This document shows, in pieces, positions 1,513-54,799 of a stretch of 64,000 nucleotides of DNA; within the stretch, counting starts at the first letter, position 1, and every line of letters starts with the position of its first letter. The notes under the pieces were generated by a model. The model worked only from the letters and a program-made list of their open reading frames with translations. It was not told where the DNA came from and searched no databases. Source of the stretch: Nitrospinota bacterium. Its GTDB lineage: Bacteria > JADFOP01. The position numbers were made by a program, and so were the translations under genes. The DNA lies in the NCBI GenBank assembly GCA_022562795.1, contig JADFOP010000003.1, positions 25,197-89,196 of the forward strand. Direction: 5' to 3'.

Positions 1513-3177
1513 TCAATTACCCACGCGTTCCTTTTCCCACTCCCTGACGATTCTTCGAAGCAGCTTGCCCGTCGGCGTCTTCGGGAGGCTCTCCACGAAG
1601 TGGAGCTCGCGCGGGAGCTTGTAGACGGCGACGTGGTCCCGGCAGGAATCGACAATCTCCTTTTTGAGCTCATCGCTTTCCTCAGAGCCCTCCGCCAGGA
1701 CGCAGTAGGCGACGGTGTTCTCACCCCGAACGGGGTCGGGCGAGCCGATGACACAGGAGTCGGCCACCGCCGGATGCAAAAGGAGGGCCTCTTCCACCTC
1801 GGCGGGCCCGATGCGGTAGCCCGAGGACTTAATCATGTCGCCCTCGCGGGAGACGAAGAAGATGTAGCCCTCATCATCGCGGTAGACGGCGTCGCCTAGG
1901 ATGTTCCAGCCGTTTCGGACCGCCGACTTCTGGTTCTCAAGCAACCGCTCGTCGTCTACGTACGGCTTCCAGTAACAGATGCCCGTGGGCCCTTTGATGG
2001 CCAGCGAGCCGACCTCCTGGGGCGGACACTCCTCGCCCTCTTCATTGAGGACCCGGATGTCGAAGCCGGGCAGTTTCCATCCAATCGAGGAGGAGTTCGG
2101 CTCTGGAGCGACGGCGTTGGAAGTCACCAGGTGGATCATCTCTGTGGCGCCGAGCCCCTCGTAAATCTCGTGACCTGTCTTCGCCTTCCAGGCATCGAAC
2201 GTCGCCGGGGTCAGAGAGTCGCCCCCGGTGGTGTACATCCGGACGCTGGAGAAGTCGAAATCCGAGAAGTTCTTCTGGGCCAGGAGGACCCTGTAGGCCG
2301 TCGGCAGACCCGTGAAGACTGTAATCTGGTGCTTTGGGACGAGACTGAGCATCTCCTGGGGCTCGAACCTTGGAATGAGGCTCACGGCTGAGCCGAAGCG
2401 AAATGGGATGAGAGCGAATGTGCCGTAGCCGGCGGCGAAGGAGACGGGTGCGCCACCGCCCAGGGTATCCTCCGGGGTGAGCTTCCAGACGTGCTTGCCC
2501 ACGATGTCCGTCTCAATGAGGGTCTGGCCCACGAAGTGGCAGCAGCCCTTGGGGGGACCCGTCGTGCCGGAAGTGTAGAGGATTAAAGCGAGGTCGTCCT
2601 TCTTCATCTTGGTCGGCTCGAGCTCGGGGCTTCCCGCCCCCACGAGCTTCTCAAAAGAGAGCAGGCCCTTGCCTTCAAGCTCCTCCGCATCACCACCCGA
2701 GATGATAATGTGCTTGGTGAACTCCATGGCCTCTCGGGCCTTTTCCACCTCGGGGAGTATGGGGGCGGTGCTGAACAGGCCAACCGCCTCGGCGTTGTTT
2801 GCGGCGAAGGATATCTCGTCTTTCGACCATAGAGGGCTCATTGTAATCGGCACGGCGCCGATCTTCATAATGGCGAAGTTCGCGATTATCGCCGCCGGGC
2901 CGTTTGTCATCCTGAGCGCAATCCGGTCGAGGGATTCCACCCCCAGCTCCTTCAGGCTGTTGCCCAGGCTGTTTACGGATTCGTAGACCTGCTGGTAGGT
3001 CCAGCTTTTGTCCATGAACTTAATCGCAACGTTGTCGCCCCGTCCCTCCTTGATGTGGATGTCCAGCATCTCTTCGGTGAGGTTGATCTCGTCGGGAAGG
3101 TTCTCATACTCGGCAGGTATAAGGTAATCCGGCAGAAGGTCCGGGGGGGGCAGGCAGTCCTCACGAATTTTTGCCAT
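1513..3177 (-). CDS. AMP-dependent acyl/aryl-CoA synthetase (ligase)
   Basis: AMP-binding signature LILYTSGTTGPPKG, GYGTFA, YRIGPAEVEEAL and C-terminal LPKTPTGKLLRR. GAGGAGGA RBS before the ATG at 3177. Confidence 0.85.
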   Translation of the reverse strand: MAKIREDCLPPPDLLPDYLIPAEYENLPDEINLTEEMLDIHIKEGRGDNVAIKFMDKSWTYQQVYESVNSLGNSLKELGVESLDRIALRMTNGPAAIIANFAIMKIGAVPITMSPLWSKDEISFAANNAEAVGLFSTAPILPEVEKAREAMEFTKHIIISGGDAEELEGKGLLSFEKLVGAGSPELEPTKMKKDDLALILYTSGTTGPPKGCCHFVGQTLIETDIVGKHVWKLTPEDTLGGGAPVSFAAGYGTFALIPFRFGSAVSLIPRFEPQEMLSLVPKHQITVFTGLPTAYRVLLAQKNFSDFDFSSVRMYTTGGDSLTPATFDAWKAKTGHEIYEGLGATEMIHLVTSNAVAPEPNSSSIGWKLPGFDIRVLNEEGEECPPQEVGSLAIKGPTGICYWKPYVDDERLLENQKSAVRNGWNILGDAVYRDDEGYIFFVSREGDMIKSSGYRIGPAEVEEALLLHPAVADSCVIGSPDPVRGENTVAYCVLAEGSEESDELKKEIVDSCRDHVAVYKLPRELHFVESLPKTPTGKLLRRIVREWEKERVGN

Positions 3178-3253
3178 CTCAGTCCTCCTCCTCTTTAGGG
3201 GGAGAGGTGGAGCGGCACGCGCTTTTAAAGGCCGCCCCGACCTGGAACTCTTC

Positions 3254-12521: not shown

Positions 12522-13991
12522 TTAGCCCTTGACCACCCCCAAGGGCCGAACTTTGGCAACCGTAGTGGCGATACCCGCCCCTTGGACCACCCGAACCACA
12601 TCGCTCACGTCCTTGTAGGCCTCCGAGATCTCCTCCACAACGGTGCGGCGGCCCGCGGCTCGAAGAATAATGCCCTTATCCTCCATCTCACGGAAGATTG
12701 ACCGGCCCTTGGCCAGCCGGGTTGCCGCTTTGCGGCTCATGAGACGCCCGGCGCCGTGGCACGAGGAACCCCAGGTCTCTTCCATAGCCTCGGGGGTGCC
12801 GACAAGGATGAAGCTGTATCGGCCCATATCACCGGGAATTAGGACGGGCTGGCCCACATGCCGGTAGGCCTCGGGTACCTCGGGGTGGCCCTTGGGGAAC
12901 GCCCGCGTCGCCCCTTTGCGGTGGACCATGAGGGGGCGCTTCCGGCCCTCGTGCGTGTGCTCCTCGAGCTTGACGATGTTATGAGCCACATCGTAGAGGA
13001 GCTTCATGCCGAGGTCTCGCGGCCCCATGCCGAGGGCCTTCTCGAAGGCCTCCCGTGCCCAATGAGTCATTGCCTGGCGGTTGGCCCAGGCGTAATTGGC
13101 CGCCCCAACCATTGCCCCCAGGTAGTCCTGGCCCTCAGGGCTGGAGTACGGCGCGCAGGCGAGTTGCTTATCGGGCAGTTGGATGTCGTACTTTCGAAGC
13201 GCATGCTCCATAACCACCAGATAGTCGGTGCAGACTTGGTGGCCGAAGCCCCTGGAGCCGGAATGAATCATGAGTGTAATCTGGCCTTTCCATAGGCCGA
13301 AGGCCTTAGCCACGTCCGCCTCATAAATCTCATCGACGACTTGCACCTCGGCGAAGTGGTTGCCACTGCCGAGCGTTCCGAGCTGCTTTCGGCCCCTGTC
13401 GAAGGCCTTCTTCGAGATGGCGTCAGGATCGGCCCCCTCCATCGCGCCGCCGCTTTCGGTGTGGTCCAGGTCTTCCGTCGTCCCGAATCCTTGCTCGACC
13501 GCCCAGCGTGAGCCTTTCGTTACTACCTTCTTAGCGTCGCTTTGCGAAAGGGTGATTTTACCTTTCGAGCCAAGGCCGCTTGGCAGCGCGTGGAAGAGGC
13601 TTTCGATTAAGGGGCGCATATGCTCTTGGACATCTTCTTGTTTGAGATTGGTCGTCAGGAGGCGTACTCCGCAGTTGATGTCGAAACCCACGCCGCCCGG
13701 GGTAATTACCCCGTCGGCGTCAGGGTCGGTCGCTATAACACCCCCTATAGGCAACCCATAGCCAAAGTGAATATCTGGCATGGCAAGGGAGCGGCCGACG
13801 ATCCCCGGCAGAGTGGCGGCGTTTGCCACCTGTTCTACGCAGTCGTCCTTTTCAATGTCGGCCATGAGCTTGTCGTCGGCGTAGATGAGACCGGGGACCC
13901 TCATGCCCTCCTTGTAGTCTATTGGGACCTCCCAACGGTAGGGGTCCAATCGTTTCAAAGGCTTCTTAGTACCTCTATCTTCCATTTTCAT
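12522..13991 (-). CDS. rtcB: RNA-splicing ligase RtcB
   Basis: DIHFGYG, GFDINCGVRLL and HSGSRGFGHQ motifs. GGAGG RBS. Confidence 0.9.
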   Translation of the reverse strand: MKMEDRGTKKPLKRLDPYRWEVPIDYKEGMRVPGLIYADDKLMADIEKDDCVEQVANAATLPGIVGRSLAMPDIHFGYGLPIGGVIATDPDADGVITPGGVGFDINCGVRLLTTNLKQEDVQEHMRPLIESLFHALPSGLGSKGKITLSQSDAKKVVTKGSRWAVEQGFGTTEDLDHTESGGAMEGADPDAISKKAFDRGRKQLGTLGSGNHFAEVQVVDEIYEADVAKAFGLWKGQITLMIHSGSRGFGHQVCTDYLVVMEHALRKYDIQLPDKQLACAPYSSPEGQDYLGAMVGAANYAWANRQAMTHWAREAFEKALGMGPRDLGMKLLYDVAHNIVKLEEHTHEGRKRPLMVHRKGATRAFPKGHPEVPEAYRHVGQPVLIPGDMGRYSFILVGTPEAMEETWGSSCHGAGRLMSRKAATRLAKGRSIFREMEDKGIILRAAGRRTVVEEISEAYKDVSDVVRVVQGAGIATTVAKVRPLGVVKG

Positions 13992-15383: not shown

Positions 15384-15832
15384 CGGTTTCGAATACCCTG
15401 TGGGGGGTTGTAAGCCTCGGGAGGGGCAGGCCAGGCGACTCGTCGAAGAGATATCATACCATTTCGCTTGACGCGCATCAAGAAAAAATACCTCTGGCAA
15501 ATATTGATGCTGAGTTTTAAATAACTGGATGTAACTGCTCAATTAAGCAATGAAAACAAACCTACGCCTCCATCCTTTTCCCACTTTGAAAAAGAAGATT
15601 GGTGAAGGGCGCCGGTTCGGCCGGTCGGACCGAGGATCTTCCAACCCTGCTGCCTATTCCTTGAGCAATCTGGATCACCGGGCTGCCTCACTGTAACCCT
15701 TTAGAATCCCGCCATTTATATACTTCCCCTCAGCTACCCTGCCCCACTGGGTAGCATCCATAGCCCCAGCAGAGGAAGATATGGGCGCCCGAAGTTTTTC
15801 ATTATCAAGCCATTAGAGGTCCTTCAGCCCTT

Positions 15833-15848
15833 TGGTATCACTCTTGCT
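15833..15848 (+). promoter_or_regulatory. sigma-54 (-24/-12) promoter upstream of amt
   Basis: TGGTAT-N5-TTGCT (GG-N10-GC spacing) ~70 nt upstream of the amt ATG. GGGAGA RBS at 15905. Confidence 0.5.
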
Positions 15849-15916
15849 GTAACGGATGATGTCAGTTGGGAGTCTTGGAGTGCAACATTAACCATTCAAC
15901 TTGCGGGAGAACCTCA

Positions 15917-42935: not shown

Positions 42936-43072
42936 ATGCGGCGGTGGCTTTGAAGCCCTTTCGCTCCCTCCTGACTTAGTCCTAACAAGGCGCTGCCCGC
43001 TGGAAAGAAGGGTTTGAAATAGGATAGGATAAGAAAAAATATTTCTTTTTTAATATCTACATGAAAAAACAC

Positions 43073-43101
43073 TTGACAACCTTCCTCTCAGGTGTTAAAT
43101 A
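43073..43101 (+). promoter_or_regulatory. sigma-70-like promoter in AT-rich spacer
   Basis: TTGACA-N17-TAAATA, ~85 nt upstream of the TadG-like gene. Surrounding sequence is AT-rich (gataggataagaaaaaatatttcttttttaat). Confidence 0.5.
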
Positions 43102-43185
43102 TTATTATGTAAGCCAGCGACCCGGCCGGCCCCTCACACCTCATCGGGGGCTAGGAGCCACAAGTCGCATGGAGGTGATACTCAG

Positions 43186-44496
43186 ATGCAGAGGCGGGAC
43201 ACATTAGGAAATCATTCTTCGGCCCGGAGAGCGTCCTTTCTAGCGTGGCGAGGCGACGAACGGGGGGCTGTTGCCGTTCTTGTAGCGGTGCTCCTGGCTG
43301 TTCTGATCGGTTTTGCAGGCCTCGTCATCGACCTTGGCCATCTGTTCGTCGTCCACTCCACGCTTCAAAACGTCGCCGACTCGGCCTCCCTAGCCGCCGC
43401 CTCAAGCCTGAGCTACGGCCCCGATGAGGCCAGAGGCCAGGCTCAGCTCCTAGCCCATAAGCACGCTGTAGACGGCACTCCAGTCGCCCTCGCTCTGGTG
43501 GACATCGAGCTTGGCACCTGGGATAAGGAGACCAAGACTTTCACCGTCTTGGAGCCAGCCCAAGAGGCAAACGCCAACAGTGTCCGGGTCATGGCTCAGC
43601 GCTCCCAAGACCGCAACAACCCCATATTTCTCATCTTCATGCCCTTGTTCGGGCACCAGGCATCGGACGTGAGAGCGATCTCCGTGGCGTACCAGGCGGG
43701 TTCGTGTATGGGGGGCATTATCGGCGGGAGACGGATAACCCTCAACAGCTCAAGTGTCACCGATAGCTACAATTCCGACTTCGGGCCGTACAGCCCCGCT
43801 ACAGCGAATCAAAATGGGGATGTCTGCAGCTGCGGAGACATCGAGCTCAACTCGTCGGCCGGCGTAAATGGCGATGCGGGGCCTGGCGATGGTCATGAGG
43901 TTATCCTGAATAGCTCCGCCTACGTCACAGGCTCCACTACCCCCGGGGGCTGCCCGGTATTACCCGACGTCGAGCTCGGTGACATCGCCACAAACAACGA
44001 CAACGGCAACATCCCGACAATGACGGACGACGGCAATGATCCTTTTGAGGATGGGCCTTACGATCTCGCACTTAATAGAGGCGACAGTATCACTTTGCCC
44101 GGTGGCCGGTACTACTTCAACTCGGTCGTGCTTAACAGCTCCTCGACGCTAAGCGTTGCGGGTCCGACCGTCATATACGTTACCGGGGAGTTCGCTGTGA
44201 ATGGTTCGGGCATCATGAATCCAGGCCTAAATCCGCAAGACCTCGTTGTTATGATCTCCTCCACCTTGGAGGTGCAACTTAACAGCAGCGTCGATTTCTA
44301 CGGCGTCATCTACGCGCCCAACGCGCGTGTCGTCAATAACAGCGGCGTCGAATTTTATGGGTCAATAATGGCAGATGAGGTCACCTTCAACAGTTCGGTC
44401 CAGTTCCATTACGACGAAGCGCTAAGCGATCTGGCGTTCCTCGACGGCGTGGAGATCGTCTTCAATAGCACTTTGAGCTCCACTCTCGTCCGGTAG
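43186..44496 (+). CDS. TadE/TadG-like (Flp pilus assembly) N-domain protein with LNSS beta-repeats
   Basis: N-terminus RGDERGAVAVLVAVLLAVLIGFAGLVIDLG matches the Tad-like TM/prepilin-type segment. The C-terminal half has at least 8 roughly periodic [LVF]N[SN]S motifs (ITLNSSSV, IELNSSAG, VILNSSAY, VVLNSSST, VQLNSSVD, VVNNSGVE, VTFNSSVQ, IVFNSTLS). Confidence 0.55.
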   Translation: MQRRDTLGNHSSARRASFLAWRGDERGAVAVLVAVLLAVLIGFAGLVIDLGHLFVVHSTLQNVADSASLAAASSLSYGPDEARGQAQLLAHKHAVDGTPVALALVDIELGTWDKETKTFTVLEPAQEANANSVRVMAQRSQDRNNPIFLIFMPLFGHQASDVRAISVAYQAGSCMGGIIGGRRITLNSSSVTDSYNSDFGPYSPATANQNGDVCSCGDIELNSSAGVNGDAGPGDGHEVILNSSAYVTGSTTPGGCPVLPDVELGDIATNNDNGNIPTMTDDGNDPFEDGPYDLALNRGDSITLPGGRYYFNSVVLNSSSTLSVAGPTVIYVTGEFAVNGSGIMNPGLNPQDLVVMISSTLEVQLNSSVDFYGVIYAPNARVVNNSGVEFYGSIMADEVTFNSSVQFHYDEALSDLAFLDGVEIVFNSTLSSTLVR

Positions 44497-44551
44497 CTCA
44501 ATATCCCGGAGGGCTTAGGAAACGTAGGACGAAGAGGAGGCACCAAGGTTC

Positions 44552-45424
44552 ATGCCAACTAATGATTCGACAGCCAATGAGCTAACTGGAAGCCTGATCC
44601 GCATCCGATCTTCTATGGAGGGGCTCCATACAGCCGAACGGAGGGTGGCCGAGGCCGTCCTATCCAACCCCGAATCGATTCTGACGAGCTCTGTCACTGA
44701 AGTCGCAAACAGCGCCGGCGCGAGCGAGGCCACCGTTGTCCGTTTCTGCCGGTCTTTGGGCTACAAAGGCTACCAGGACTTTAAAATTTCTCTCGCCAGA
44801 GACCTTGTGTCTCCCATCAAGAGCCTCCACGAGGAGTTGGAAGAAGGCGATGAGCCGCCGGATGTGGCGGCCAAGGTCTTCCGATCCCACATCCAGGCCC
44901 TGGAGGAGACCCTCGCCGTGCTCGACCCCGCCCATTTCGCCAAAGCCGTGGAGCTCCTCGTCGGCGCTCGGCAAATCTTCTTTATCGGGGTTGGAACCTC
45001 GGCGCCCAACATCCTCGATGCACAGAACAAGTTCTTCCGGCTGGGCTATGCGACCTCTGCGCAGAGCGACAGCCACCTGCAGGCCATGCAGGCGGCGCTG
45101 CTGGAGCCGGATGACGTGGTGGTGGCCATCTCCCACTCGGGACAGACCCGCGACACCATCGAGACGGTCCAGGTCGCTAAGGCCAGAGGGGCGAGCGCCA
45201 TTGCCATCACCAACGCGGCCCTCTCGCCGCTGGCAAAGCTCTGTGACATCACCCTGGTGACCGCCTCTCGCGAAACTCGGTTCCGTATGGAGGCCCTCGC
45301 CAGCCGTATAGCTCAGACCACTATTATCAACGCCCTCTTCATGGCCTGCAGCCTGGCAGATATGGAGCGCACCTTACTGCTTCGCGAGGTCATCGAAGAG
45401 GCAGTTGTCGGCAAGCAGTACTGA
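44552..45424 (+). CDS. RpiR/MurR family transcriptional regulator (HTH + SIS domain)
   Basis: HTH_6 N-terminus SVTEVANSAGASEATVVRFCRSLGYKGYQDF. SIS domain IFFIGVGTSAPNILDAQNKF ... SHSGQTRDT. Confidence 0.8.
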   Translation: MPTNDSTANELTGSLIRIRSSMEGLHTAERRVAEAVLSNPESILTSSVTEVANSAGASEATVVRFCRSLGYKGYQDFKISLARDLVSPIKSLHEELEEGDEPPDVAAKVFRSHIQALEETLAVLDPAHFAKAVELLVGARQIFFIGVGTSAPNILDAQNKFFRLGYATSAQSDSHLQAMQAALLEPDDVVVAISHSGQTRDTIETVQVAKARGASAIAITNAALSPLAKLCDITLVTASRETRFRMEALASRIAQTTIINALFMACSLADMERTLLLREVIEEAVVGKQY

Positions 45425-45500
45425 GGAGGGAACGGGAGAAGAGGGTGGACGATAGAGCGACGCTCGCTCTTTCACTAGCCCCAGATTGGGAGTTCAACCG

Positions 45501-46160
45501 ATGATGATCGAACAGACCACGAATGGCATAGACCTTCGCACCTTTATCGTTCTGGATAACCTGCAGTACCAGCTCGCCTCCTTTATTGGCACGACCGCCC
45601 GTGGGTTTTTGCCCATCGGGGGGATGGCGAGCCTATTCGTCGAGATCGCCCCAGGGATCGCCATCAACCGGCTGACCGACGTGGCCCTCAAGGCCACCAA
45701 CGTCAAGCCCGCCATGCAGATCGTGGAGCGTGCCTACGGGCTTCTGGAGGTTCACTCCGAAAGCCAGGCCGACGTACGCCAGGCGGGCCAGGCCATCCTC
45801 GATGACTTGGGCCTCCAGGAAAGAAACCGCCGCAAGCCCCGCACCGTCTCGACCCAGATCATCCGCAACGTAGACGACTATCAGGCCCAACTCATCAACC
45901 GGGAGCGCCACGGTCAGATGCTCATACCTGGCCAGACCCTTTACATCCTGGAGGTGGAGCCAGCGGGCTACGCTGCGCTGGCCGCCAACGAGGCTGAGAA
46001 GGCAAGCAACGTCAACCTGGTAGACGTGAGGCCCTTCGGGGCCTTTGGGCGACTCTACCTGGGCGGTGAGGAGCGCGACGTTGTGGTCGGCAGCGAGGCG
46101 GCCCTTCGGTCCCTGGAGATGGTGGATGGCCGCGAGGTCGCCGAGGGGACTGAGAGATGA
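45501..46160 (+). CDS. divergent tandem-BMC-domain shell protein (BMC-T-like)
   Basis: Two successive segments fit the BMC-domain pattern ([27 protein letters not shown]...[11 protein letters not shown] and [27 protein letters not shown]...[14 protein letters not shown]). GGGAG RBS before ATG 45501. Confidence 0.5.
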
Positions 46161-46240
46161 GCCGAAGAAGAAAAGGAAAAAATGGATCGCCGGCCAAGCG
46201 AACCCGCGATTTCAATAAAGGAGGGGGAGGAGGTGAGGTC

Positions 46241-47413
46241 ATGAACGAACTCGAGCAGACCGAAATCCTGGAACGCTCTCGGACTATGACACCCGATTTG
46301 GCATCCGTGTCATCCAGAGTAGCATCCCCATCGGAGTCGTATCAATTACCCATCGGCTCGACCATGACCGCGAAGGATTTGCTCATGGAGCCTGAAATTG
46401 GCGGCACCACAAAGCGGGGCGGGCGGAACGGAGCAAGCGTACGCGAAGATTGGATCGCCCTGGAGCAGGTCGTGGTGACCAGCCCCAAGATGAAGCAGGT
46501 ATTCAAGCTTGCCAGAACCCTCGGCCGTGCCGACCGGGCGACGGTGCTTATTACCGGCGAGACGGGCACTGGCAAAGAGGTGATAGCCAGGACCATTCAT
46601 CTTATGAGCCCCCGGCTCGACCAGCCCATGGTAGTGGTCAACTGCGGGGCCATCCCGAAGGAACTCATGGAGGCCGAGCTACTGGGCTACGCGAAGGGGG
46701 CCTTCACGGGGGCGGCCACGGGCGGCAACAAGGGCAAGGTGGAGTTGGCGCATAAGGGCACCCTCCTTTTAGATGAGATTGCCGAGCTGCCTCATGGAGC
46801 CCAGACTATCTTGTTGCGTATTCTGGACGGCCAGCCCTTCTACCCGGTGGGTTCCAACCGGGAGGTTAGAGCCGACGTACGGGTCATTGCCGCTACGAAC
46901 CGAGACCTTGAAGCCGCCGTGTCCGAAGGCTCCTTCCGCGAGGACCTTTTCTACCGGCTGAACGTGGCCCATATGCATCTGCCGCCGCTTAGGGAGCGGG
47001 CCGATGATATTTTGCCCCTGGCCAAAAGCTTCCTGAACGAGTTCAACCAGCTATACGGCAAGGCATTTCGGGAGATCACCCAGCAGGGGGCTGCTCGTCT
47101 GCTTTCATACCCCTGGAAGGGGAACGTCCGGGAGATAAAAAACGCCATCGAGCGGGTTGTGGTTTACGAAGATGACACAAAGGTAAGGGCCGAGCACTTA
47201 ACTTTTCTGGAACCCGGCCCGGCAGAAACGACCAACGGGGCCTCGGCATTCACTCTGCCGCGCGAGGGCGTTGATATTGAGAGCGTCTTCAGAAGCCTCA
47301 TCGTTCAGGCCCTCGATAGAACCGAAGACAATCAGTCAGAGGCCGCCCGCTTGCTGGGCATCTCGCTGCCCACGCTCCGATACCGAATGGCGAAATACGG
47401 TCTGAAAAACTAA
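46241..47413 (+). CDS. sigma-54-dependent transcriptional activator (enhancer-binding protein)
   Basis: AAA+ sigma-54 interaction domain (GETGTGKEV Walker A, GAFTGA sigma-54 contact motif, ESELFGH-like EAELLGYAKGAF, DVRVIAATNRDL). C-terminal Fis-type HTH (SEAARLLGISLPTLRYRM). Strong AAAGGAGGGGGAGGAGG RBS. No obvious N-terminal receiver domain. Confidence 0.85.
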   Translation: MNELEQTEILERSRTMTPDLASVSSRVASPSESYQLPIGSTMTAKDLLMEPEIGGTTKRGGRNGASVREDWIALEQVVVTSPKMKQVFKLARTLGRADRATVLITGETGTGKEVIARTIHLMSPRLDQPMVVVNCGAIPKELMEAELLGYAKGAFTGAATGGNKGKVELAHKGTLLLDEIAELPHGAQTILLRILDGQPFYPVGSNREVRADVRVIAATNRDLEAAVSEGSFREDLFYRLNVAHMHLPPLRERADDILPLAKSFLNEFNQLYGKAFREITQQGAARLLSYPWKGNVREIKNAIERVVVYEDDTKVRAEHLTFLEPGPAETTNGASAFTLPREGVDIESVFRSLIVQALDRTEDNQSEAARLLGISLPTLRYRMAKYGLKN

Positions 47414-47538
47414 GAGGGAGCAAGGGGTATGACGTGGTGCTCGGCAGTGGGGTGGCCTGAATATAAACCGATGGGTAGCAAGGAACGCCGGCCAATCTCG
47501 CCGGCAATTTCAAGGACCAATAGAGAGGAGGTAAAACC

Positions 47539-47844
<306 letters not shown>

Positions 47845-47852
47845 GGCAGCCC

Positions 47853-48152
47853 ATGCTTATCGGCCGCATTGTAGGCACGGTCGTGGCCACCCAGAAGGAG
47901 CCGCGACTTGAAGGCCTCAAGTTACAAGTGGTCAAGCGGGTGGAAATCGAAGGCAGCCTCTCGGAGACCTTCGTGGTGGCGGTCGACGCCGTGGGGGCAG
48001 GTCAAGGTGAAACAGTCCTCTACGCAACCGGCAGCGCCGCCCGCCAGACCCCCCTGACTGATGGACGACCCGTCGATGCGGTGGTCATGGCCATCGTCGA
48101 TACCTGGGACGTGGACGGACGGGTCGTCTATGACAAGCAGAAGGAAGGGTAA
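47853..48152 (+). CDS. BMC-P vertex (pentamer) protein, EutN/CcmL/PduN family
   Basis: MLIGRIVGTVVATQKEP...GSAARQ...DAVVMAIVD pattern of EutN/CcmL. Confidence 0.85.
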   Translation: MLIGRIVGTVVATQKEPRLEGLKLQVVKRVEIEGSLSETFVVAVDAVGAGQGETVLYATGSAARQTPLTDGRPVDAVVMAIVDTWDVDGRVVYDKQKEG

Positions 48153-48163
48153 GGGAGATAGCC

Positions 48164-49594
48164 ATGCAGATGTCAGAGGCTCAGGTGGCCTCCATTGTTG
48201 AGAAGGTGCTTCAGAGGATGGAGAGCCCCCCTAGGGCCGAGCCCGCTCCTGCCTCGGCCGGAACGGAAGGCCCCGGAATTTTCGCCACCCTCGACGAGGC
48301 AGTCTCGGCTGCTGAGAAGTCCCAGCGGGACCTCGTGGCTCTCGGCCTCGCGGTTCGGGTAGCCATGGTGGAGTCGATCCGCCTGGTCTGCCTCGAGCAC
48401 CTCGAGAGCCTCGCCCGGATGGCCGTTGAGGAGACGGGATTCGGCCGCCTCGAGGACAAGGTAGTCAAGAACCGCCTTGTGACCGAGCTCACACCGGGGC
48501 CCGAGTTCTTAACAACTGAGGCGTTTAGCGACGACTCCGGCCTCACGATTCAGGAGCGGGCCCCATACGGGGTATTGAGCGCTATCACCCCTTCGACGAA
48601 CCCCTCTTCCACCATCATAAACAACGCAATCGCCATGGTATCGGCCGGCAACGCGGTCGTCTTCAACCCCCATCCGGGGGCGGTGGGCGTCTCGCTGCGA
48701 ACCATTGCGCTGATGAACGAGGCTGCCGTCTCGGCCGGAGGTCCCCCGACCTGCTTTACTTCCCCGGCAGAGCCATCGGTCGAGACGGCCCAGTCTCTCA
48801 TGCGCCACCCCAAGGTGGCCCTCAACGTGGTAACCGGCGGGCAGGCCGTCGTAGAGGAAGCCCGCCGGGCCGGAAAGCGGGTCATCGGCGCCGGGCCCGG
48901 CAACCCCCCCATCGTGGTGGACGAGACGGCGGAGATCGACCGGGCCGCCCGCGACATCGTGGCCGGGGCGAGCTTTGACAATAACGTCGTCTGCACAGAC
49001 GAGAAGGAACTCTTTGTCGTGGCCTCCGTGGCCGATGAGCTCAAGGACCGGATGAAGGCCCACGGAGCGTACGAGCTCAGCCCTCACCAGACCGAGCGGC
49101 TCTCTAGGCTCGTGATCGAGCGGGAGGCCCCGACGCGGCAGTCCTCGGCCATTAACCGGGCCTTGGTGGGCAAGGACGCCCAGGTGATCCTGAGCGAGAT
49201 CGGCGTGGATGCGCCCGAGACGGTGCGGCTTATTCTCTGCGAAACCGACCGGGACCACCCCTTCGTCTGGACTGAGCTCCTCATGCCCATCCTGCCCCTT
49301 GTGCGGGTGGAAGATGTGGAGGAGGCCATCGGCCTGGCCGTCCAGGCCGAACACGGCTTTGGCCACACGGCAGTGATTCACTCGACCAACGTGGGCGCCA
49401 TGGACAAGATGGCCAGGGATATCAAGACCGCCCTCTTCGTCAAGAACGGCCCGAGCTATGCCGGCCTAGGTGGGGGCGGGGCGGGATACACGAGCTTTAC
49501 CATCGCCACACAGACCGGCGAAGGGCTCACCACCCCCTACACCTTCACCCGCGAGCGTCGATGCACGCTTGTGGGTTCGTTTCGAATCGTATGA
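48164..49594 (+). CDS. CoA-acylating aldehyde dehydrogenase (PduP/EutE-like) with N-terminal encapsulation-peptide-like helix
   Basis: ALDH fold with a catalytic Cys region (FDNNVVCTDEKE). N-terminal amphipathic helix SEAQVASIVEKVLQRM, followed by a Pro/Ala linker PPRAEPAPASAGTEGPG, as in BMC-targeted AldDHs. Confidence 0.85.
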   Translation: MQMSEAQVASIVEKVLQRMESPPRAEPAPASAGTEGPGIFATLDEAVSAAEKSQRDLVALGLAVRVAMVESIRLVCLEHLESLARMAVEETGFGRLEDKVVKNRLVTELTPGPEFLTTEAFSDDSGLTIQERAPYGVLSAITPSTNPSSTIINNAIAMVSAGNAVVFNPHPGAVGVSLRTIALMNEAAVSAGGPPTCFTSPAEPSVETAQSLMRHPKVALNVVTGGQAVVEEARRAGKRVIGAGPGNPPIVVDETAEIDRAARDIVAGASFDNNVVCTDEKELFVVASVADELKDRMKAHGAYELSPHQTERLSRLVIEREAPTRQSSAINRALVGKDAQVILSEIGVDAPETVRLILCETDRDHPFVWTELLMPILPLVRVEDVEEAIGLAVQAEHGFGHTAVIHSTNVGAMDKMARDIKTALFVKNGPSYAGLGGGGAGYTSFTIATQTGEGLTTPYTFTRERRCTLVGSFRIV

Positions 49595-50253
49595 CGCCCG
49601 CGCGCCCGACACCTCGACCCATCTACCCAGGCCAGGACTTCCGTCCTGTCCTGACGCGCCTGCCTGAGCCCTACCTGGTGGAGGAGTGGGCCGTGGCGGC
49701 CGTGGAGCTCAACCGGATCGCCCCTGGATTCACCGCGTGTGACGCCATGCTGAAGGCCGCTCCGGTAACGCTCATAGAGGCCGCGCCCCTCTGCCCGGGC
49801 AAGTACCTGATCATTGTCGGCGGCGAGGTGGCGAGCGTGGAGAGCGCGTACGAGGCGGGCCTCGCCGTTGGCGGGACGGCCGTCATCGATCGGCTCCTGC
49901 TCGCCAAGGCCGATCGGCAGGTCTTTCCGGCCCTCGTGGGCGAGTCCAAACGGTCGGTGACCTTCACCGAGGGCGACAGCTTGGGGGTCATTGAGACCTG
50001 CTCGGCCGCCTCGGCCATCCTCGCCGCCGACGCCGCCTGCAAGGCCGCCGGAGTGCGTCTCTACGAATGCCACATCGCCCAGGGCCTCGGCGGAAAGGGC
50101 TATCTTTACTTCTTCGGAGAGCTCAGTGCCGTGGAGGCGAGCGTGGAAGCAGGAGGGGCCATCGTATCACCGGATGGACTCCTCGTCGGCACCGAGGTCA
50201 TACCCGACCCGGATGCAATTCTCGTTGAGCGTCTTATGAGAGAGGTTCCCTAA
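49591..50253 (+). CDS. tandem-BMC-domain shell protein (BMC-T, PduT-like)
   Basis: Two BMC domains (AAVELNRIAPGFTACDAMLKAAPVTLIEAAP... and LGVIETCSAASAILAADAACKAAGVRLYECHIAQGLGGKGYLYFFGELSAVEASVEAG). ATGA overlap with the AldDH stop. Confidence 0.7.
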   Translation: MTPARPTPRPIYPGQDFRPVLTRLPEPYLVEEWAVAAVELNRIAPGFTACDAMLKAAPVTLIEAAPLCPGKYLIIVGGEVASVESAYEAGLAVGGTAVIDRLLLAKADRQVFPALVGESKRSVTFTEGDSLGVIETCSAASAILAADAACKAAGVRLYECHIAQGLGGKGYLYFFGELSAVEASVEAGGAIVSPDGLLVGTEVIPDPDAILVERLMREVP

Positions 50254-50256
50254 GCG

Positions 50257-50613
50257 ATGTTCCTCGCTGATGTTCTCGGCAGAGTCGTGGCCACCCGCCG
50301 ATACGATAAAACTATAGGCTACCGGCTACTTTGGGTTCAGCCTTTGGACCACCACGGGGAGGCGGCAGGCCAGCCCGAGGTGGCACTCGACACCGTCTTG
50401 AGCGGAAGCGGCGACCGGGTCATCTGCGTAATCGGTCGGGAGGCCTCCATGGCCATGGACCTCCCCGGCCGGTTCAGCCCCGTGGACCTGGCTATTGTTG
50501 GTATCGTCGACCGGGTAGACGTGGATAATGGTGAGCCGGACAACGGGAATGCCAACGGTAATTCCAATGGACATGCCAACGGTAATTCCAATGGGAATGC
50601 CAATGGGCATTAA
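50257..50613 (+). CDS. BMC-P vertex protein with Asn/Gly-rich C-terminal repeat tail
   Basis: MFLADVLGRVVATRR ... DRVICVIGREAS ... DLAIVGIVDRV EutN/CcmL pattern, plus a C-terminal NGNANGNSNGHANGNSNGNANGH tail. Confidence 0.8.
   Translation: MFLADVLGRVVATRRYDKTIGYRLLWVQPLDHHGEAAGQPEVALDTVLSGSGDRVICVIGREASMAMDLPGRFSPVDLAIVGIVDRVDVDNGEPDNGNANGNSNGHANGNSNGNANGH
50545..50610 (+). repeat. short coding tandem repeat (aatgg[ga][ac]atgccaacggtaattcc) encoding N-G-N/H-A-N-G-N-S
   Basis: Direct reading: ggaatgccaacggtaattccaatggacatgccaacggtaattccaatgggaatgccaatgggcat. Confidence 0.6.
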
Positions 50614-50637
50614 TCGAGGAAGAGGGTTCTCAAGCTG

Positions 50638-50910
50638 ATGCTCCTCGCTCAGGTAGTCGGTACGGTGAACTCAACGGTCAAGCAACCTGCATTGATCGGA
50701 CACACCGTTCTTTGCGTGGAGCCCCGCGACGAGGCCTGGCAGTCGACGGGAGAACCCTCCTTCCTCGCGATCGATTTCGCACTGGCCGGGGTGGGCGACC
50801 GGGTGCTGGTGGTGCGCGAGGGCGGGGCGAGCCGTCTCACCATGGGGGTGGAAGACGCCCCCGTCCACGCCGTCGTCGTAGGCATCGTGGATGCCGTCGA
50901 AGGGAGATAG
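50638..50910 (+). CDS. BMC-P vertex protein (third paralog)
   Basis: MLLAQVVGTVNSTVKQP...DRVLVVREGGASR...HAVVVGIVDAV EutN/CcmL pattern. 90 aa. Confidence 0.8.
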   Translation: MLLAQVVGTVNSTVKQPALIGHTVLCVEPRDEAWQSTGEPSFLAIDFALAGVGDRVLVVREGGASRLTMGVEDAPVHAVVVGIVDAVEGR

Positions 50911-50917
50911 TGAGGTT

Positions 50918-51724
50918 ATGGGAATGGCCATCGCCGCACCCTGGCAGACCGAGAAAATGCTCCGAGAGGAAATGTGCCGCATAGGACGGCTCATCTATGA
51001 GCGGGGCTTCATCGCCGCCACCGACGGCAACCTCTCGGTGCGTCTCGACGACGAACGGGTCCTCTGCACTCCGTCTGGCCTCTGCAAGGGATTTCTCGAG
51101 CCGTCAGACCTGGTGGTGGTGGACTTTGATTTGAAGCTGCTGAAGGGGGTCGGTCAGGCTAGCACTGAGATACTTATGCACTTGGGGGCATACCGGGCCC
51201 GGCCCGAAGTTCGCGCCGTCATTCACGCTCACCCGCCCACGGCGATCGCCTTCTCCATCGGGGGGCGGTCTGAGGCTCTTGCCGGGGCTTTCTTGCCGGA
51301 GGTCGTCTACACCCTTGGGGCCATCCCGACGGCCCGCTACGCGACCCCCGGCACGGCTGATGTCCCGGCGAGCCTCGAGCCCTACTGGGCCAAGTGCGAC
51401 GCCATCATCCTCGACCGACACGGCTCCATCACGGTGGGAGAGACCCTGTTGGAGGCCTACCTGAAGCTCGACAAGGTGGAGCACGCCGCCAAGGTGACCT
51501 TCATGGCTACGCTGCTGGGAACGCCCCGGCCCCTTCCGGCCAAGGAGGTTGAAAAGCTCGCCCTTCAGGGAGCGGCCAGGGGCTACCCGACCGAGTGCTC
51601 GGCCTGCGCCGACGGCGGGGTCTGCGATCGGGAGGCGCCCGAGGGTGATCGCGGCCTATCCGATGCGGTCGAGGAGTCTATCGTCGAAGAGGTGCTTCGG
51701 GCTGTCCGGAAGGCGGCAGGGTAA
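50918..51724 (+). CDS. class II aldolase/adducin-family enzyme (L-fuculose/rhamnulose-1-phosphate aldolase-like) with C-terminal encapsulation-peptide-like helix
   Basis: GNLSVRLDD...VLCTPSG and AVIHAHPPTAIAFS (Zn-binding His) typical of FucA/RhaD/AraD. C-terminal extension ends in the amphipathic LSDAVEESIVEEVLRAVRKAAG after a Cys-rich linker. Confidence 0.8.
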   Translation: MGMAIAAPWQTEKMLREEMCRIGRLIYERGFIAATDGNLSVRLDDERVLCTPSGLCKGFLEPSDLVVVDFDLKLLKGVGQASTEILMHLGAYRARPEVRAVIHAHPPTAIAFSIGGRSEALAGAFLPEVVYTLGAIPTARYATPGTADVPASLEPYWAKCDAIILDRHGSITVGETLLEAYLKLDKVEHAAKVTFMATLLGTPRPLPAKEVEKLALQGAARGYPTECSACADGGVCDREAPEGDRGLSDAVEESIVEEVLRAVRKAAG

Positions 51725-51775: not shown

Positions 51776-54700
51776 CTATCCCCCCTCCTCCATTAGCTTG
51801 ACGACCTGGCCCTCCAGGACCGATTCACCCCGTTGATTCACGATCTCAATAGAGAGCGGCACGATGGGAGGCCCCTGGCCTTTCTTCGAGCGGCGAATGT
51901 CTGACGGCTCAGGAGCAGTCACTGTCACGGTGAGGTCGTCGCCCGCCTCGATGGGGGCACCGAAGGCCGAGACCTCGGCGCTTAGAAGGAGGTGGCCCGG
52001 TGCGCTCTCGGCTGAGGCCATGGCCATGGTTCCGATAGCGAGCAGGGCGCTCAGCTGGTGCAGGTCGAGCGCCCCGAAGAGGGCTCTGGTCGCACGGACG
52101 ATCTCGTCGGTGATGGGTTTGGTTATGCTTTGGACGCGGGGGCTTGCCGGGTTGGTGAAGTCGTGAATGACGTCGGGCACTGATGGGGCGACGTCGTCGG
52201 CCCACGCCCTCACCCAGGGAAGCTCCGCTGGGGCCGGGACAACCGGCTCTGGGCGGGCCTGGCGCCGGATGGTCGTCTCGCCCTCGCATACCACCGTCCC
52301 CGCCTGGTTGAGGGCCTTTAGAGCCAGGCGGGCTCGGCCGTCGTCGGAGACCTCCTCGACGTAGGCCACGGAGGTCAGCGTGTCGTCGAAAGCCACCGGG
52401 GCGCGGAAGCGCACCGTTAGGGTTTCTTCCGTATCTCCGGGCAGCAGCCGCCCCAGGCTCGCGAGCATAAGAGAGGTGGTGAGCAGCCCGTGGGCCACGA
52501 GCCCGCCGAAGCGGGAGGCATCGGCGTAGGCCTTATCGAGATGGTAGCGGTTCCGGTCGCCCGAGGTCTTTGCGAAGGTCTGAACCATCCATTCCCTAAC
52601 CGGGGTTGCGTAGCCGACCAGTGTCTGGCCGGGGAAGACGGCTGTGCCCAGCTGCTCCGTGCCGCCGGGCCTCAGGGCGAGCAGGAGCCGCTCGCGGGCG
52701 GTGACGTAGCGCTCGGCCTCATCGTCGGTGAGGTGGTCGGCCTTGAAAGCCCTCTCAAGCTGGCCGTAGTATATACGCGCCGTGGCGGCGTCCACGAGCT
52801 CAGGCTGGTTGGTCACCGGGTCGTTGTAGGCCACCGCCCCGAGCTTCCGCTCCTGGTCGGCCGTGGCGTATAGCTCGAGTATCTCCAGCGCCCTCTCGAC
52901 CGAGTTGGTCCACCGGGAAAGGAACGCGGCCCCTTCAGGGGTTGAGAGGTCCTCCGGGGGGGTCCCGGCCCTGGGCGGGTTCATGATGGCGGCCACGGCG
53001 TCGGCCTGCTCAGGGGTGACGAGCTTGCCGTGAAAGCCGAGGTTGGCAACGAAAGAAGCCTCGTCCTCGACCTTTTCCGGCTCACTCGGCCCGTCGATTG
53101 CGTCGATGTCGGCCTGTGCAGTGGCGGCGACCAGCGCCGAGTGGTAATAGAGGTAGCCCTTGGTTGCGGGGTCAGCGAGGTCCTCTTTAGGCATGTCTTG
53201 GGCGAGATCGAGGATGAGCCACATCATGCGGCGGCTCGCCTCTGCGATGGCCTCTGAGTCCCGCTCCACGCTTTCGGGCTTCGTAAGCCTCACCCCTAGG
53301 GCCAGGGCGCCCACCTCCAGGCCCACCTCGCGCTCGGCTTCGGTAAGCAGCCCTGCGGCCTCGCGGACCGTGGCGACATCGTCCACCTCAGGGAGGACGA
53401 TGCCGTGGATGGTCTCGCCGAGGGCTCCAAGGAGGCTGGCCAGCCCGGATGCGGCCCCCTCGCCGCGTAGGTCGGCCTGGCAGGCTACCACCTTTCCTCC
53501 TCCCTCCGATTTCAAGGCCTCGGCCAAAGCCTCGTGGGTGGCTTCTTGTCCGGGCGCGAGGAGCCCATCGACGTCGCAGATGATCATGTCGGCCCTAGAA
53601 GCTACGGCCACTCGGACGGATTCGAGGTCGTCGCCTTTGGCTTCGACCACCGAGCGGGCGAGGACGACGGGCCGGGGGATGAAGACGGTGGGGGGCAAGA
53701 TGGGCCGGGCCTCTGCGGCAAGCCGCTTGAGCTCCTCGAGGTCGAAGGGCTCGATGGGCTCGTATTCCAGCCGCCTTCGGACCGGCGACGGGAAGTGCGA
53801 GGCGTGTCGGGCGATGCCTTCGATGTGGGCCGGATGGACGCTCCATTTGCGGTGGATGCCGATGGAGATGGCCTTAGTGGTGTCCTGCTCCGTATCGTCA
53901 GCGTTGAGCTTTACCGTGATACCCGTGCCGGCGACCTTCCCGGTTGCGCGGGCCGCCTCGACGATGGTCAGCAGCGGGAAGCGCATGTAGGTGTACTGCT
54001 GCTGCTGGACGATGCTTCGGCCCCCCGTGGCCGCCGTGTAGTCGACGACACCCAGGTTTATCTCCTCAACTTCGGGCGCCGCGGCGAGTATCTGGCGGGC
54101 CTGGAGAATGGCCCCCGGCAGCTCGGTAAGGACGAAGACCTTGTGGCGAGCGGGCCGCCAGCCCCGCTCGGCCTGGATGGCTCTGAGTATTCTGACTGCC
54201 ACGAGCACGTCGTCCGCATCCTTGACCTTCGGCAGATAGATGCCGTCGATTAAGTCCCCCACCTCCCGGATCACATGGATGTAGTCGCCTGCCGACCAAC
54301 TCGTCCGAAGGTTGTTGGGCCTCACAAGGATCATCTGGTCGGGGGGAAGGCGGAGGTCTGGCTTGAGGGCGAGGCCGCCTTCGGTTGGCTCGAAGGCTTC
54401 GGCCAGCTGGTCGGCCCGGCCCTCGGGCATGGCGTGCTCCTGGAGGAAGGCTACGTCCTCAGGGGTCAAGACCTGGCCGCGGAAGGCCCTAATCAGCAGT
54501 GCGATGACCGGGCGGGCGATCTCCTTGCGGGTGGTCGCTACGGCATCTTCGATGTCTAGCAGAAGAATGTGAGCATCCGATTGGGCCGCCTTGTGCAAGA
54601 AGTACCAGTTGTCGCCTGGGAAGACGTGCTCGATGGTCCGGGGGCGGAGCTCCCAGCTCAAACGATCTATGACCGCCTCTCGGCTCGCCTTAGGGTCGAG

Positions 54701-54799
54701 GGCCTGCAAGGCCTCCAACCGCTCGGCGACCTCTGCCTCAGCTTCGGCGTCGTGGCCACCGTACGCCTCAACAATCTCGCTCCAGGCTTGATCCGTCAT
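51776..54799 (-). CDS. mega-fusion: two CitE/HpcH-type (malyl/citramalyl-CoA lyase-like) domains + MaoC-like (R)-hydratase hot-dog + second hot-dog
   Basis: Start trimmed to MTDQAWSEIV (AAGGAA RBS at 54804-54810). CitE motif RTIEHVFPG...HILLLDIEDAV. A second degenerate CitE-like repeat (ADMIICDVDGL...IHGIVLPEVDDV). MaoC core NRYHLDKAYADASRFGGLVAHGLLTTSL...FRAPVAFDDTL, followed by a second hot-dog. The 104-codon ORF-track 5' extension is low-complexity. Confidence 0.7.
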   Translation of the reverse strand: MTDQAWSEIVEAYGGHDAEAEAEVAERLEALQALDPKASREAVIDRLSWELRPRTIEHVFPGDNWYFLHKAAQSDAHILLLDIEDAVATTRKEIARPVIALLIRAFRGQVLTPEDVAFLQEHAMPEGRADQLAEAFEPTEGGLALKPDLRLPPDQMILVRPNNLRTSWSAGDYIHVIREVGDLIDGIYLPKVKDADDVLVAVRILRAIQAERGWRPARHKVFVLTELPGAILQARQILAAAPEVEEINLGVVDYTAATGGRSIVQQQQYTYMRFPLLTIVEAARATGKVAGTGITVKLNADDTEQDTTKAISIGIHRKWSVHPAHIEGIARHASHFPSPVRRRLEYEPIEPFDLEELKRLAAEARPILPPTVFIPRPVVLARSVVEAKGDDLESVRVAVASRADMIICDVDGLLAPGQEATHEALAEALKSEGGGKVVACQADLRGEGAASGLASLLGALGETIHGIVLPEVDDVATVREAAGLLTEAEREVGLEVGALALGVRLTKPESVERDSEAIAEASRRMMWLILDLAQDMPKEDLADPATKGYLYYHSALVAATAQADIDAIDGPSEPEKVEDEASFVANLGFHGKLVTPEQADAVAAIMNPPRAGTPPEDLSTPEGAAFLSRWTNSVERALEILELYATADQERKLGAVAYNDPVTNQPELVDAATARIYYGQLERAFKADHLTDDEAERYVTARERLLLALRPGGTEQLGTAVFPGQTLVGYATPVREWMVQTFAKTSGDRNRYHLDKAYADASRFGGLVAHGLLTTSLMLASLGRLLPGDTEETLTVRFRAPVAFDDTLTSVAYVEEVSDDGRARLALKALNQAGTVVCEGETTIRRQARPEPVVPAPAELPWVRAWADDVAPSVPDVIHDFTNPASPRVQSITKPITDEIVRATRALFGALDLHQLSALLAIGTMAMASAESAPGHLLLSAEVSAFGAPIEAGDDLTVTVTAPEPSDIRRSKKGQGPPIVPLSIEIVNQRGESVLEGQVVKLMEEGG

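Follow-up and report, generated by a model that had tools for sequence, protein, structure and literature searches.

An inserted, receiver-less sigma-54 activator gene in a microcompartment shell operon of Nitrospinota, and where its targets may lie

Why would a gene for a sigma-54 enhancer-binding protein (EBP) lie among the shell genes of a bacterial microcompartment (BMC) locus in which there is no sigma-54 promoter for it to act on? The question is raised by a 64,000-nucleotide contig stretch from a Nitrospinota bacterium (the window; coordinates refer to it unless a related locus is named), in which an EBP gene at 46241-47413 is located between genes for a BMC-T and a BMC-H shell protein. 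The initial annotation had described the BMC-T gene as divergent, and this was incorrect; the gene (45501-46160) shares the + strand with the EBP gene and is located immediately in front of it. Our preferred explanation, to which we assign a probability of roughly 0.55, is that the gene encodes a receiver-less paralog that was inserted in the shell operon, is active when made and acts in trans on sigma-54 promoters elsewhere, probably those of Flp pilus genes.

The EBP matches Sigma54_activat (PF00158; 5.4e-62), AAA_lid_14 (6e-20) and HTH_8 (PF02954; 5.9e-12) in Pfam. Its catalytic motifs and helix-turn-helix (HTH) are all intact, including the arginine finger, and the Walker A motif GETGTGKE, the Walker B DE and the GAFTGA loop are in columns that are invariant across 42 homologs. 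The gene and its parts are as follows:

46241-47413, + strand: receiver-less sigma-54 EBP, 390 amino acids (aa), stop included (Pfam, dN/dS)
46241-46435, + strand: N-terminal tail, residues 1-65, disordered and unconstrained, not a domain (AF2, Pfam, hhalign, dN/dS)
46364-46366, + strand: internal ATG (Met42), possibly the ancestral start of the receiver-less EBP (aligns with the P0012 start codon, locus L008)
46472-46975, + strand: AAA+ sigma-54 interaction domain, residues 78-245 of the 390-aa protein (PF00158)
46556-46579, + strand: Walker A motif GETGTGKE (read from the sequence)
46697-46714, + strand: GAFTGA loop (read from the sequence)
47291-47398, + strand: Fis-type HTH (HTH_8) DNA-binding domain (PF02954, 5.9e-12)

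The matches and motifs bear out the description of the gene in the initial annotation as an AAA+ GAFTGA-type activator with a Fis-type HTH, and the very strong ribosome-binding site (RBS) noted there is present as AAAGGAGGGGGAGGAGGTGAGGTC in front of the ATG. An identical protein with the same start is called on five metagenome contigs. An alternative in-frame ATG at 46157 was rejected; it overlaps the stop codon of the preceding gene, has no RBS and is not used by gene callers. The apparent lack of a receiver was confirmed as well, since the protein has no Pfam match to the receiver family PF00072 and a search with residues 1-90 gave no Pfam match at a threshold as permissive as E≤1; there is also no histidine kinase among the EBP neighbors in the window. 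The initial annotation had named a standard N-terminal receiver, as in an ordinary NtrC paralog, as a refuting result; the receiver is absent, and the gene is a receiver-less derivative of such a paralog.

This descent is evident from the homologs (numbered P; related loci are numbered L). The closest ortholog, P0001 from the Nitrospinae metagenome-assembled genome (MAG) GCA_022563965.1, is 93% identical and is found in the same locus. The next-best homologs by whole-protein BLASTP, P0002 to P0007, are 456-460 aa long, contain PF00072 and are 77-78% identical; over the AAA+ region, P0007 is 80.5% identical to the EBP. More broadly, a clade of uncharacterized Flp/Tad-linked proteins from Nitrospinota and Tectimicrobiota (P0002-P0011 and P0016-P0021) has 65-78% whole-protein identity to the EBP, and kinases flank its full-length relatives. 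In a neighbor-joining (NJ) tree, the window clade groups with P0002, P0003 and P0007. The HTH of the EBP is nearly the same as that of P0007 (...QSEAARLLGISLPTLRYRMAKYGL versus ...QSKAARLLGISLPTFRYRMEKYGL). A single MAG, GCA_032840045.1, encodes both a BMC-embedded receiver-less EBP (L136) and the full-length paralog P0007 (L007), and these two proteins are 81.6% identical over the AAA+ region. These data support that the gene is best read as a receiver-less paralog of an NtrC-family response regulator.

To score sigma-54 promoters, we used a position weight matrix (PWM) with frequencies approximated from the published consensus and validated on the window's own promoters. In L007, a kinase fragment and a response regulator precede the EBP, which is followed by a 17.6-bit sigma-54 promoter, a single-domain response regulator, an 18.0-bit promoter and the Flp pilin gene. 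A 17.0-bit promoter follows the EBP in L137, and L055 has the order kinase, EBP, Flp, TadE. L008 from Tectimicrobiota encodes another receiver-less homolog, P0012, with a 16.0-bit promoter and the genes for Flp and RpiR downstream of it; P0012 is preceded by the same TPR/TonB_C gene as is present in the window, shares the tail of the EBP from Met42 on and has lost its HTH. In L137, and likewise in L054, the EBP is followed by a strong promoter, and Flp is either uncalled or beyond the contig end. A Flp pilin gene lies behind a sigma-54 promoter in at least two loci with full-length relatives. The Flp-type promoters share an element similar to an integration host factor (IHF) site, TATCAnnCAGTTnCAAGG, at a fixed distance and an upstream TTGAyCAwATCC, and a strong sigma-54 promoter with this module, similar to an IHF site plus an upstream activating sequence (UAS), follows the EBP in the checked loci L007, L137, L008 and L054. 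A scan of genome contigs with the EBP returned only distant EBPs (≤47% identity), which gave no information on gene context.

We note that, in more distant members of the EBP clade, strong sigma-54 promoters in L053 (13830-13847, − strand; 19.6 bits) and L054 (1465-1482, + strand; 12.8 bits) precede small open reading frames (ORFs) of 65 and 56 aa, respectively, without a Pfam match and in place of Flp. The regulon of the EBP clade may be broader than pilin genes.

The coexistence of the two proteins in one MAG, with AAA+ domains 81.6% identical and near-identical HTHs, fits a different account of how the EBP might act. EBPs act as hexamers, and hetero-hexameric pairs such as HrpR/HrpS are known. 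The EBP could form mixed hexamers with the full-length paralog and sensitize or poison Flp promoters when the BMC operon is on. The complete Walker, GAFTGA and arginine-finger motifs are compatible with autonomous activity, and we consider mixed hexamers unlikely.

How the gene arrived in the shell operon can be read from the flanking DNA. Using an alignment of BMC-T homologs, we fetched 80 related BMC loci (658 kb) from metagenomes. None of the 80 contains any EBP, even at E<1e-2. In 71 of them, a BMC-T homolog (about 61-70% identical) heads the shell operon and runs directly into BMC-H with a median gap of 74 bp, followed by BMC-P, an aldehyde dehydrogenase (AldDH), BMC-T and BMC-P. The EBP is therefore a lineage-specific insertion. 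In L056, in which BMC-T and RpiR are 91% and 79% identical, respectively, to those of the window, the order is RpiR, BMC-T, a 103-bp gap and BMC-H, with no EBP. The DNA on the two sides of the EBP gene is duplicated:

46120-46271, + strand: copy A, functional BMC-T 3' end, spacer with hairpin and RBS, EBP ATG and ~10 codons (MNELEQTE...)
47435-47569, + strand: copy B, degenerate BMC-T 3' end, spacer, RBS, BMC-H ATG and ~10 codons (MSEFGQTD...)

The copies are identical in 93 of 135 aligned columns. In the ungapped core (46184-46271 versus 47482-47569), 60 of 88 positions are identical, giving a score of 64 compared with 18.7 ± 3.0 (maximum, 37) for shuffled sequences. The BMC-T remnant in copy B is repeat family D1, and the start of P0001 reads MSELEQTE. 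As judged by this alignment, the RBS, ATG and first ~10 codons of the EBP were copied from BMC-H, which retains its own set; a junction duplication of about 135-150 bp would thus have provided the EBP with the RBS, start codon and first ~10 codons that it uses. Together, these findings point to the recent insertion of the EBP gene, in one narrow Nitrospinota lineage, at the BMC-T/BMC-H junction of a widely conserved shell operon. The EBP is an add-on in this lineage and not the regulator of the BMC locus.

Two further observations concern this junction. In L126, another related BMC locus, a different gene (2244-3200) is located at the same place; the 318-aa protein that it encodes may resemble Rpn/YhgA-like nucleases or putative transposases, and insertions may be favored at this junction. 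Moreover, a small G+C hairpin precedes the BMC-H RBS in both duplicated copies (47492-47510 and 46194-46212), and L056 has a different hairpin in the same place (about 2199-2216), which may tune the BMC-T:BMC-H expression ratio.

An insertion confined to a narrow lineage, with a tail that evolves neutrally, a relative (P0012) that has lost its HTH and no target found, could also be a functionless passenger, i.e., a recent partial duplication that is decaying and was tolerated because BMC-H expression stayed intact. Several lines of evidence argue against decay. Based on two independent comparisons with orthologs, residues 66-390 have a ratio of nonsynonymous to synonymous substitution rates (dN/dS) of 0.20-0.34 and are under purifying selection. 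The same residues are confidently modeled by AlphaFold2 (AF2), with a per-residue confidence (pLDDT) of >90 over most of residues 80-320 and confident HTH helices at residues 346-385. The catalytic motifs and HTH are intact, the 90%-identity cluster containing the EBP has 43 member sequences, and the ORF is unbroken in the window, L006 and L136, which represent at least three diverged genomes or strains, and in several metagenome contigs. A functionless gene is, accordingly, an improbable explanation.

If the protein is functional, the nearest target to consider is the shell operon itself, with the EBP gene immediately upstream of BMC-H. A search of the window for the consensus TGGCAC-N5-TTGC with ≤2 mismatches gave 50 matches versus 53 expected, among which only the site at glnB is perfect; we replaced this search by the PWM. 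The top site is GTGGCACGACTCTTGCTT (18.3 bits; 19548-19531, − strand) in front of glnB-glnA, and the second is TTGGTATCACTCTTGCTG (13.5 bits; 15832-15849, + strand) in front of amtB. These promoters look like a classical NtrC regulon. From these canonical promoters, it would follow, as indirect evidence, that the host uses sigma-54 and canonical sigma-54 promoters. No rpoN turned up among the annotated ORFs of the window, in which no search aimed at rpoN was made. The window also contains an RtcB RNA ligase gene (12522-13991, − strand) with upstream sigma-54 sites of ≤7.4 bits and no RtcR-type EBP among the annotated ORFs.

In the 125-bp spacer in front of BMC-H (47414-47538), the best + strand site reaches 4.9 bits (CGGCAG-N5-TGGCC; 47441-47458), compared with a chance expectation of ~0.23 sites of ≥4.9 bits per 125 nt (both strands). 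The corresponding site of the ortholog L006 has a T in place of the −12 C and scores −0.6 bits. The site is also in the degenerate copy of the BMC-T 3' coding end. By these measures, the GG-N10-GC at 47443-47456 is at chance level and not a credible promoter. The PWM scan of 45425-45500 gave no credible −24/−12 element, and none of the intergenic regions of the BMC clusters in the window, L006 and L136 has a sigma-54 site above about 10 bits. In the entire 64-kb window, only the glnB and amtB promoters were found, and no cognate −24/−12 promoter with enhancers for the EBP. The initial annotation had reported no GG-N10-GC or −24/−12 element in 47414-47538 or 45425-45500; this stands insofar as neither region has a credible element, while a literal GG-N10-GC at 47443-47456 had been overlooked. 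Its proposal that the target may lie elsewhere is supported by the lack of a sigma-54 promoter or promoter module in the BMC locus and of an EBP in the 80 related loci.

The EBP could still be a dedicated activator of the shell operon if its sigma-54 promoter, in the spacer or inside a coding region, were very weak or non-canonical. The correctly spaced 4.9-bit GG-N10-GC and a 9.4-bit site at 47872-47889, inside the BMC-P coding region, are the candidates, and there is a published prediction of putative sigma-54 promoters for the GRM clusters of Clostridium (PMC12016505). Against this, the proven-type sigma-54 promoters of the host are canonical, at 18.3 and 13.5 bits, and the 4.9-bit site is a BMC-T coding relic at chance level (0.23 expected) with its −12 C lost in L006. 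The 9.4-bit site falls within the conserved EutN N-terminal coding motif, and transcription from it would begin inside that gene. Finally, BMC-T runs directly into BMC-H in 71 of the 80 loci, none of which has an EBP, and the UAS-/IHF-like module is absent. We regard a dedicated activator as very unlikely; lacking a −24/−12 promoter to act on there, the EBP would not drive the shell operon.

Searches for the targets of the Flp/Tad-linked clade in the window were also negative. The IHF-like motif TATCAnnCAGTTnCAAGG has 0 matches versus 0.8 expected, and the UAS-like motif TTGAnCAnATCC has 3 matches versus 2.6 expected. No Flp gene was found in the window by motif search and tblastn, the best match being the N-terminus of a TadG-like protein. 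The sequence TTTCAAGGAC in front of BMC-H was considered as an IHF-like element of the L054 type and rejected; it does not align and is part of the duplicated BMC-T/BMC-H spacer.

The N-terminal extension had been put at ~110 aa in the initial annotation and proposed as a possible novel sensor domain. It is only ~65 aa long, with the AAA+ Pfam match starting at residue 78, and its properties speak against a sensor. The pLDDT of residues 1-65 is <50 (27-39 across the tail), and residues 4-14 are modeled by AF2 as a short helix with a disordered linker behind it. In P0001, this putative helix would contain a proline (position 10). When aligned with the receiver-plus-linker profile of the homologs using hhalign, the tail profile matched only at residues 63-81 (the last 19 linker residues) with a probability of 6.9%, and the DNA of the tail has no similarity to the receiver-coding sequence of the paralogs. 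Compared with two orthologs, codons 1-65 have a dN/dS of ~1.5. Because of the low pLDDT, the lack of Pfam and profile homology, this dN/dS and the first ~10 codons copied from BMC-H, the tail is not a sensor; it is unconstrained filler, neither sensor nor receiver. A degenerate receiver was suggested by TAKDLLMEP, which resembles GAYDYLVKP in the multiple alignment, and was rejected as unsupported by the profile and DNA comparisons. That the tail is nonetheless functional, as a novel small sensor or as a helix (residues 4-14 plus the long linker) that targets the protein to the shell, is scarcely credible: the modeled helix and disordered linker, in a segment derived from the BMC-H N-terminus, have what we take to be the layout of a BMC encapsulation peptide, but the pLDDT of 27-39, the dN/dS of ~1.5, the lack of domain homology, proline 10 of P0001 and a P0012 that starts only at the Met42 equivalent all contradict it, and the encapsulation-peptide idea was set aside.

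Protein homology between the EBP and P0012 starts at Met42. In the alignment of this position with the P0012 start (ATGACCGCGAAGGATTTGCT versus ATGACAGCGGAGGAGTTGCT), the score is 25, within the range of shuffled sequences (mean, 17.4; standard deviation, 2.5; maximum, 28). Translation of the receiver-less EBP may ancestrally have begun at Met42, for which this is modest evidence.

With the shell operon set aside as a target, the preferred reading of an activator acting in trans depends on when the EBP is made. The string of genes to which it belongs is organized as follows:

43062-43109, + strand: conserved A/T-rich sigma-70-like promoter region, AAAAAACAC-TTGACA (43073-43078), then TAAATATTAT
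43186-44496, + strand: TadG-like Flp-pilus protein (Tad, Tad_C, TadE, DUF7305; Pfam)
44552-45424, + strand: MurR/RpiR-family regulator (HTH_6 and SIS; Pfam, NCBIfam)
45501-46160, + strand: CcmP/CsoS1D-like tandem BMC-T shell protein (Pfam CsoS1D_N, weak Pfam BMC, NCBIfam CcmP)
47539-51724, + strand: shell/enzyme operon of BMC-H, BMC-P, AldDH, BMC-T, BMC-P, BMC-P and class II aldolase (Pfam; order kept in related loci)

Every gene from 43186 to 51724 is on the + strand, with short gaps, and the promoter region heads the string of tadG-like, rpiR, BMC-T, EBP, BMC-H and onward. An AAAAAA.ACTTGACA block in this region is invariant in five loci, where it precedes the tadG-like gene (window and L006), rpiR (L056 and L136) or the receiver-less EBP (L008). 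A simple sigma-70 scan did not list the 43062-43109 site on the + strand, and sigma-70 and terminator scans from rpiR to BMC-H gave nothing above background. The conservation of the block suggests that one sigma-70-type promoter region serves the whole string, with an uncertain, inferred −10 assignment, and rpiR, the BMC genes and the EBP gene would most likely be co-transcribed from it. The RpiR regulator (HTH_6 and SIS; 44552-45424), which heads the same gene string and had gone unmentioned in the earlier description of the locus, is likely a sugar-phosphate-responsive regulator of the BMC locus and is of a kind usual for such loci. An rpiR gene also precedes BMC-T in L056, L136 and L006 and adjoins the EBP homolog in L008.

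In NtrC1 and NtrC4, the receiver and helical linker repress assembly, and deletion of the NtrC1 receiver gives a constitutively active ATPase. Because the receiver and the coiled-coil linker that hold its closest characterized relatives inactive are absent, the EBP should be active whenever it is made. With its near-identical HTH, it may bind the same enhancer sites as the full-length paralog, and it could switch on distant sigma-54 promoters, probably those in front of the single-domain response regulator and the Flp pilin. In doing so, it would bypass the histidine kinase of the paralog and couple the expression of pili to that of the sugar-catabolic microcompartment upon its induction. A more far-reaching version, which we offer tentatively and as possible at best, is that the BMC operon captured a constitutive Flp-pilus activator, such that RpiR-linked induction of the organelle switches on sigma-54-dependent Tad/Flp genes and bypasses the sensor. 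If true, surface adhesion would have become hard-wired to a metabolic organelle through a single insertion, with a junction duplication that borrowed the translation start of a shell gene.

Several points weigh against the preferred reading. The target promoter of the EBP was not found, and the window contains neither a Flp gene nor the IHF-/UAS-like module of the family. The paralog and its link to Flp come from a sister MAG, not from the window's own genome, and in L055 the interval between the EBP and Flp is without a sigma-54 site of ≥10 bits. Co-transcription is deduced from just the gene order and short gaps, and a hairpin (GCCGGC-N7-GCCGGC; 47492-47510) lies between the EBP gene and BMC-H. 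Constitutive activity is extrapolated from NtrC1-type proteins, and NtrC-type proteins need the receiver for activation. Lastly, in the NJ tree, the clades of the window EBP and of P0007 pair with each other to the exclusion of P0012, consistent with either one or two losses of the receiver.

The remainder of the locus provides context. The BMC locus is of a class II aldolase and AldDH metabolosome type, PVM-like in gene content; its BMC-T scores 313 bits against NCBIfam CcmP, under the 340-bit cut-off. The tadG-like gene between the conserved promoter region and rpiR is present in the window, L001-L004 and L006 and absent in L136 and L056. In L008, the slot between the promoter block and rpiR holds the receiver-less EBP and Flp, and this slot seems to turn over Tad-related genes. 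The C-terminus of one BMC-P (50257-50613) contains a tandem NGNANG-type repeat (50540-50610), and the length of this protein varies from 118 aa in the window to 110 aa in L001-L004 and 114 aa in L006 and L136. Converging on the end of the BMC operon, a gene at 51776-54799 (− strand) encodes a 1007-aa protein in which HpcH/HpaI aldolase or citrate-lyase-like domains are fused to a MaoC dehydratase domain; it is kept in all orthologous loci (L001-L004, L006 and L136) and may belong to the pathway.

Among proteins of solved structure, Aquifex NtrC4 (4l4u; 4.9e-75) and NtrC1 (1ny5 and 1ny6) are the best matches to the EBP, with values ranging to 2.2e-72. Like the EBP, NtrC1 and NtrC4 of Aquifex aeolicus have an AAA+ domain with GAFTGA, and NtrC4 also has a Fis-type HTH; their layout of receiver, helical linker, AAA+ and HTH is that of the full-length paralogs. 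The EBP differs from both in that it has neither receiver nor helical linker and its first 65 residues are disordered filler. In consisting of AAA+ and HTH alone, it resembles PspF of Escherichia coli and HrpR/HrpS of Pseudomonas syringae, and as with these proteins, its activity would depend on the protein amount or on partners in trans and not on a sensor in cis. It is not a PspF, scoring 243 and 198 bits against the NCBIfam pspF models with cut-offs of 443.55 and 529, respectively, and unlike PspF and HrpR/HrpS it has no adjoining gene for a PspA- or HrpV-like anti-activator and descends recently from a response regulator. The window locus resembles those of the Flp/Tad-linked clade in the kept TadG-like gene and in the TPR/TonB_C and RpiR neighbors shared with L008. 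Proteins of that clade have a receiver, an adjacent kinase and, in the checked loci L007, L137, L008 and L054, a strong downstream promoter, whereas the window EBP has none of these nearby.

Sigma-54 control of microcompartment-type pathways has precedents in EatR of Pseudomonas aeruginosa, an EBP for the eut operon that senses acetaldehyde (PMC5821096), and in the predicted sigma-54 promoters of the glycyl radical enzyme microcompartment (GRM) clusters of Clostridium ljungdahlii (PMC12016505). In those cases, the regulated operon has a −24/−12 promoter in front of it and sensing is done by the EBP, whereas the window has no such promoter and its EBP no sensor. The BMC catalog paper is silent on sigma factors (PMC8217296), and our literature search found no paper combining a bacterial microcompartment, sigma-54 and an enhancer-binding protein. 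Thus, receiver-less EBPs such as PspF and HrpR/HrpS and sigma-54 control of related pathways were known already; what is new is the position and origin of this gene, a truncated pilus activator that lies within a shell operon, has a chimeric start and is flanked by a duplication scar that can still be read.

The recent insertion of the EBP gene, the scar of which is still readable, explains why an EBP can be present where it has no promoter, and the locus illustrates that a regulator inside an operon need not control that operon. For the annotation of BMC loci, this EBP should not be counted as the locus regulator, for which RpiR is the conserved candidate. The gene is a natural example of a response regulator turned into a receiver-less, expression-controlled activator, and it provides a testable hypothesis, namely that microcompartment induction may be coupled to Flp/Tad pilus expression in uncultivated Nitrospinota.

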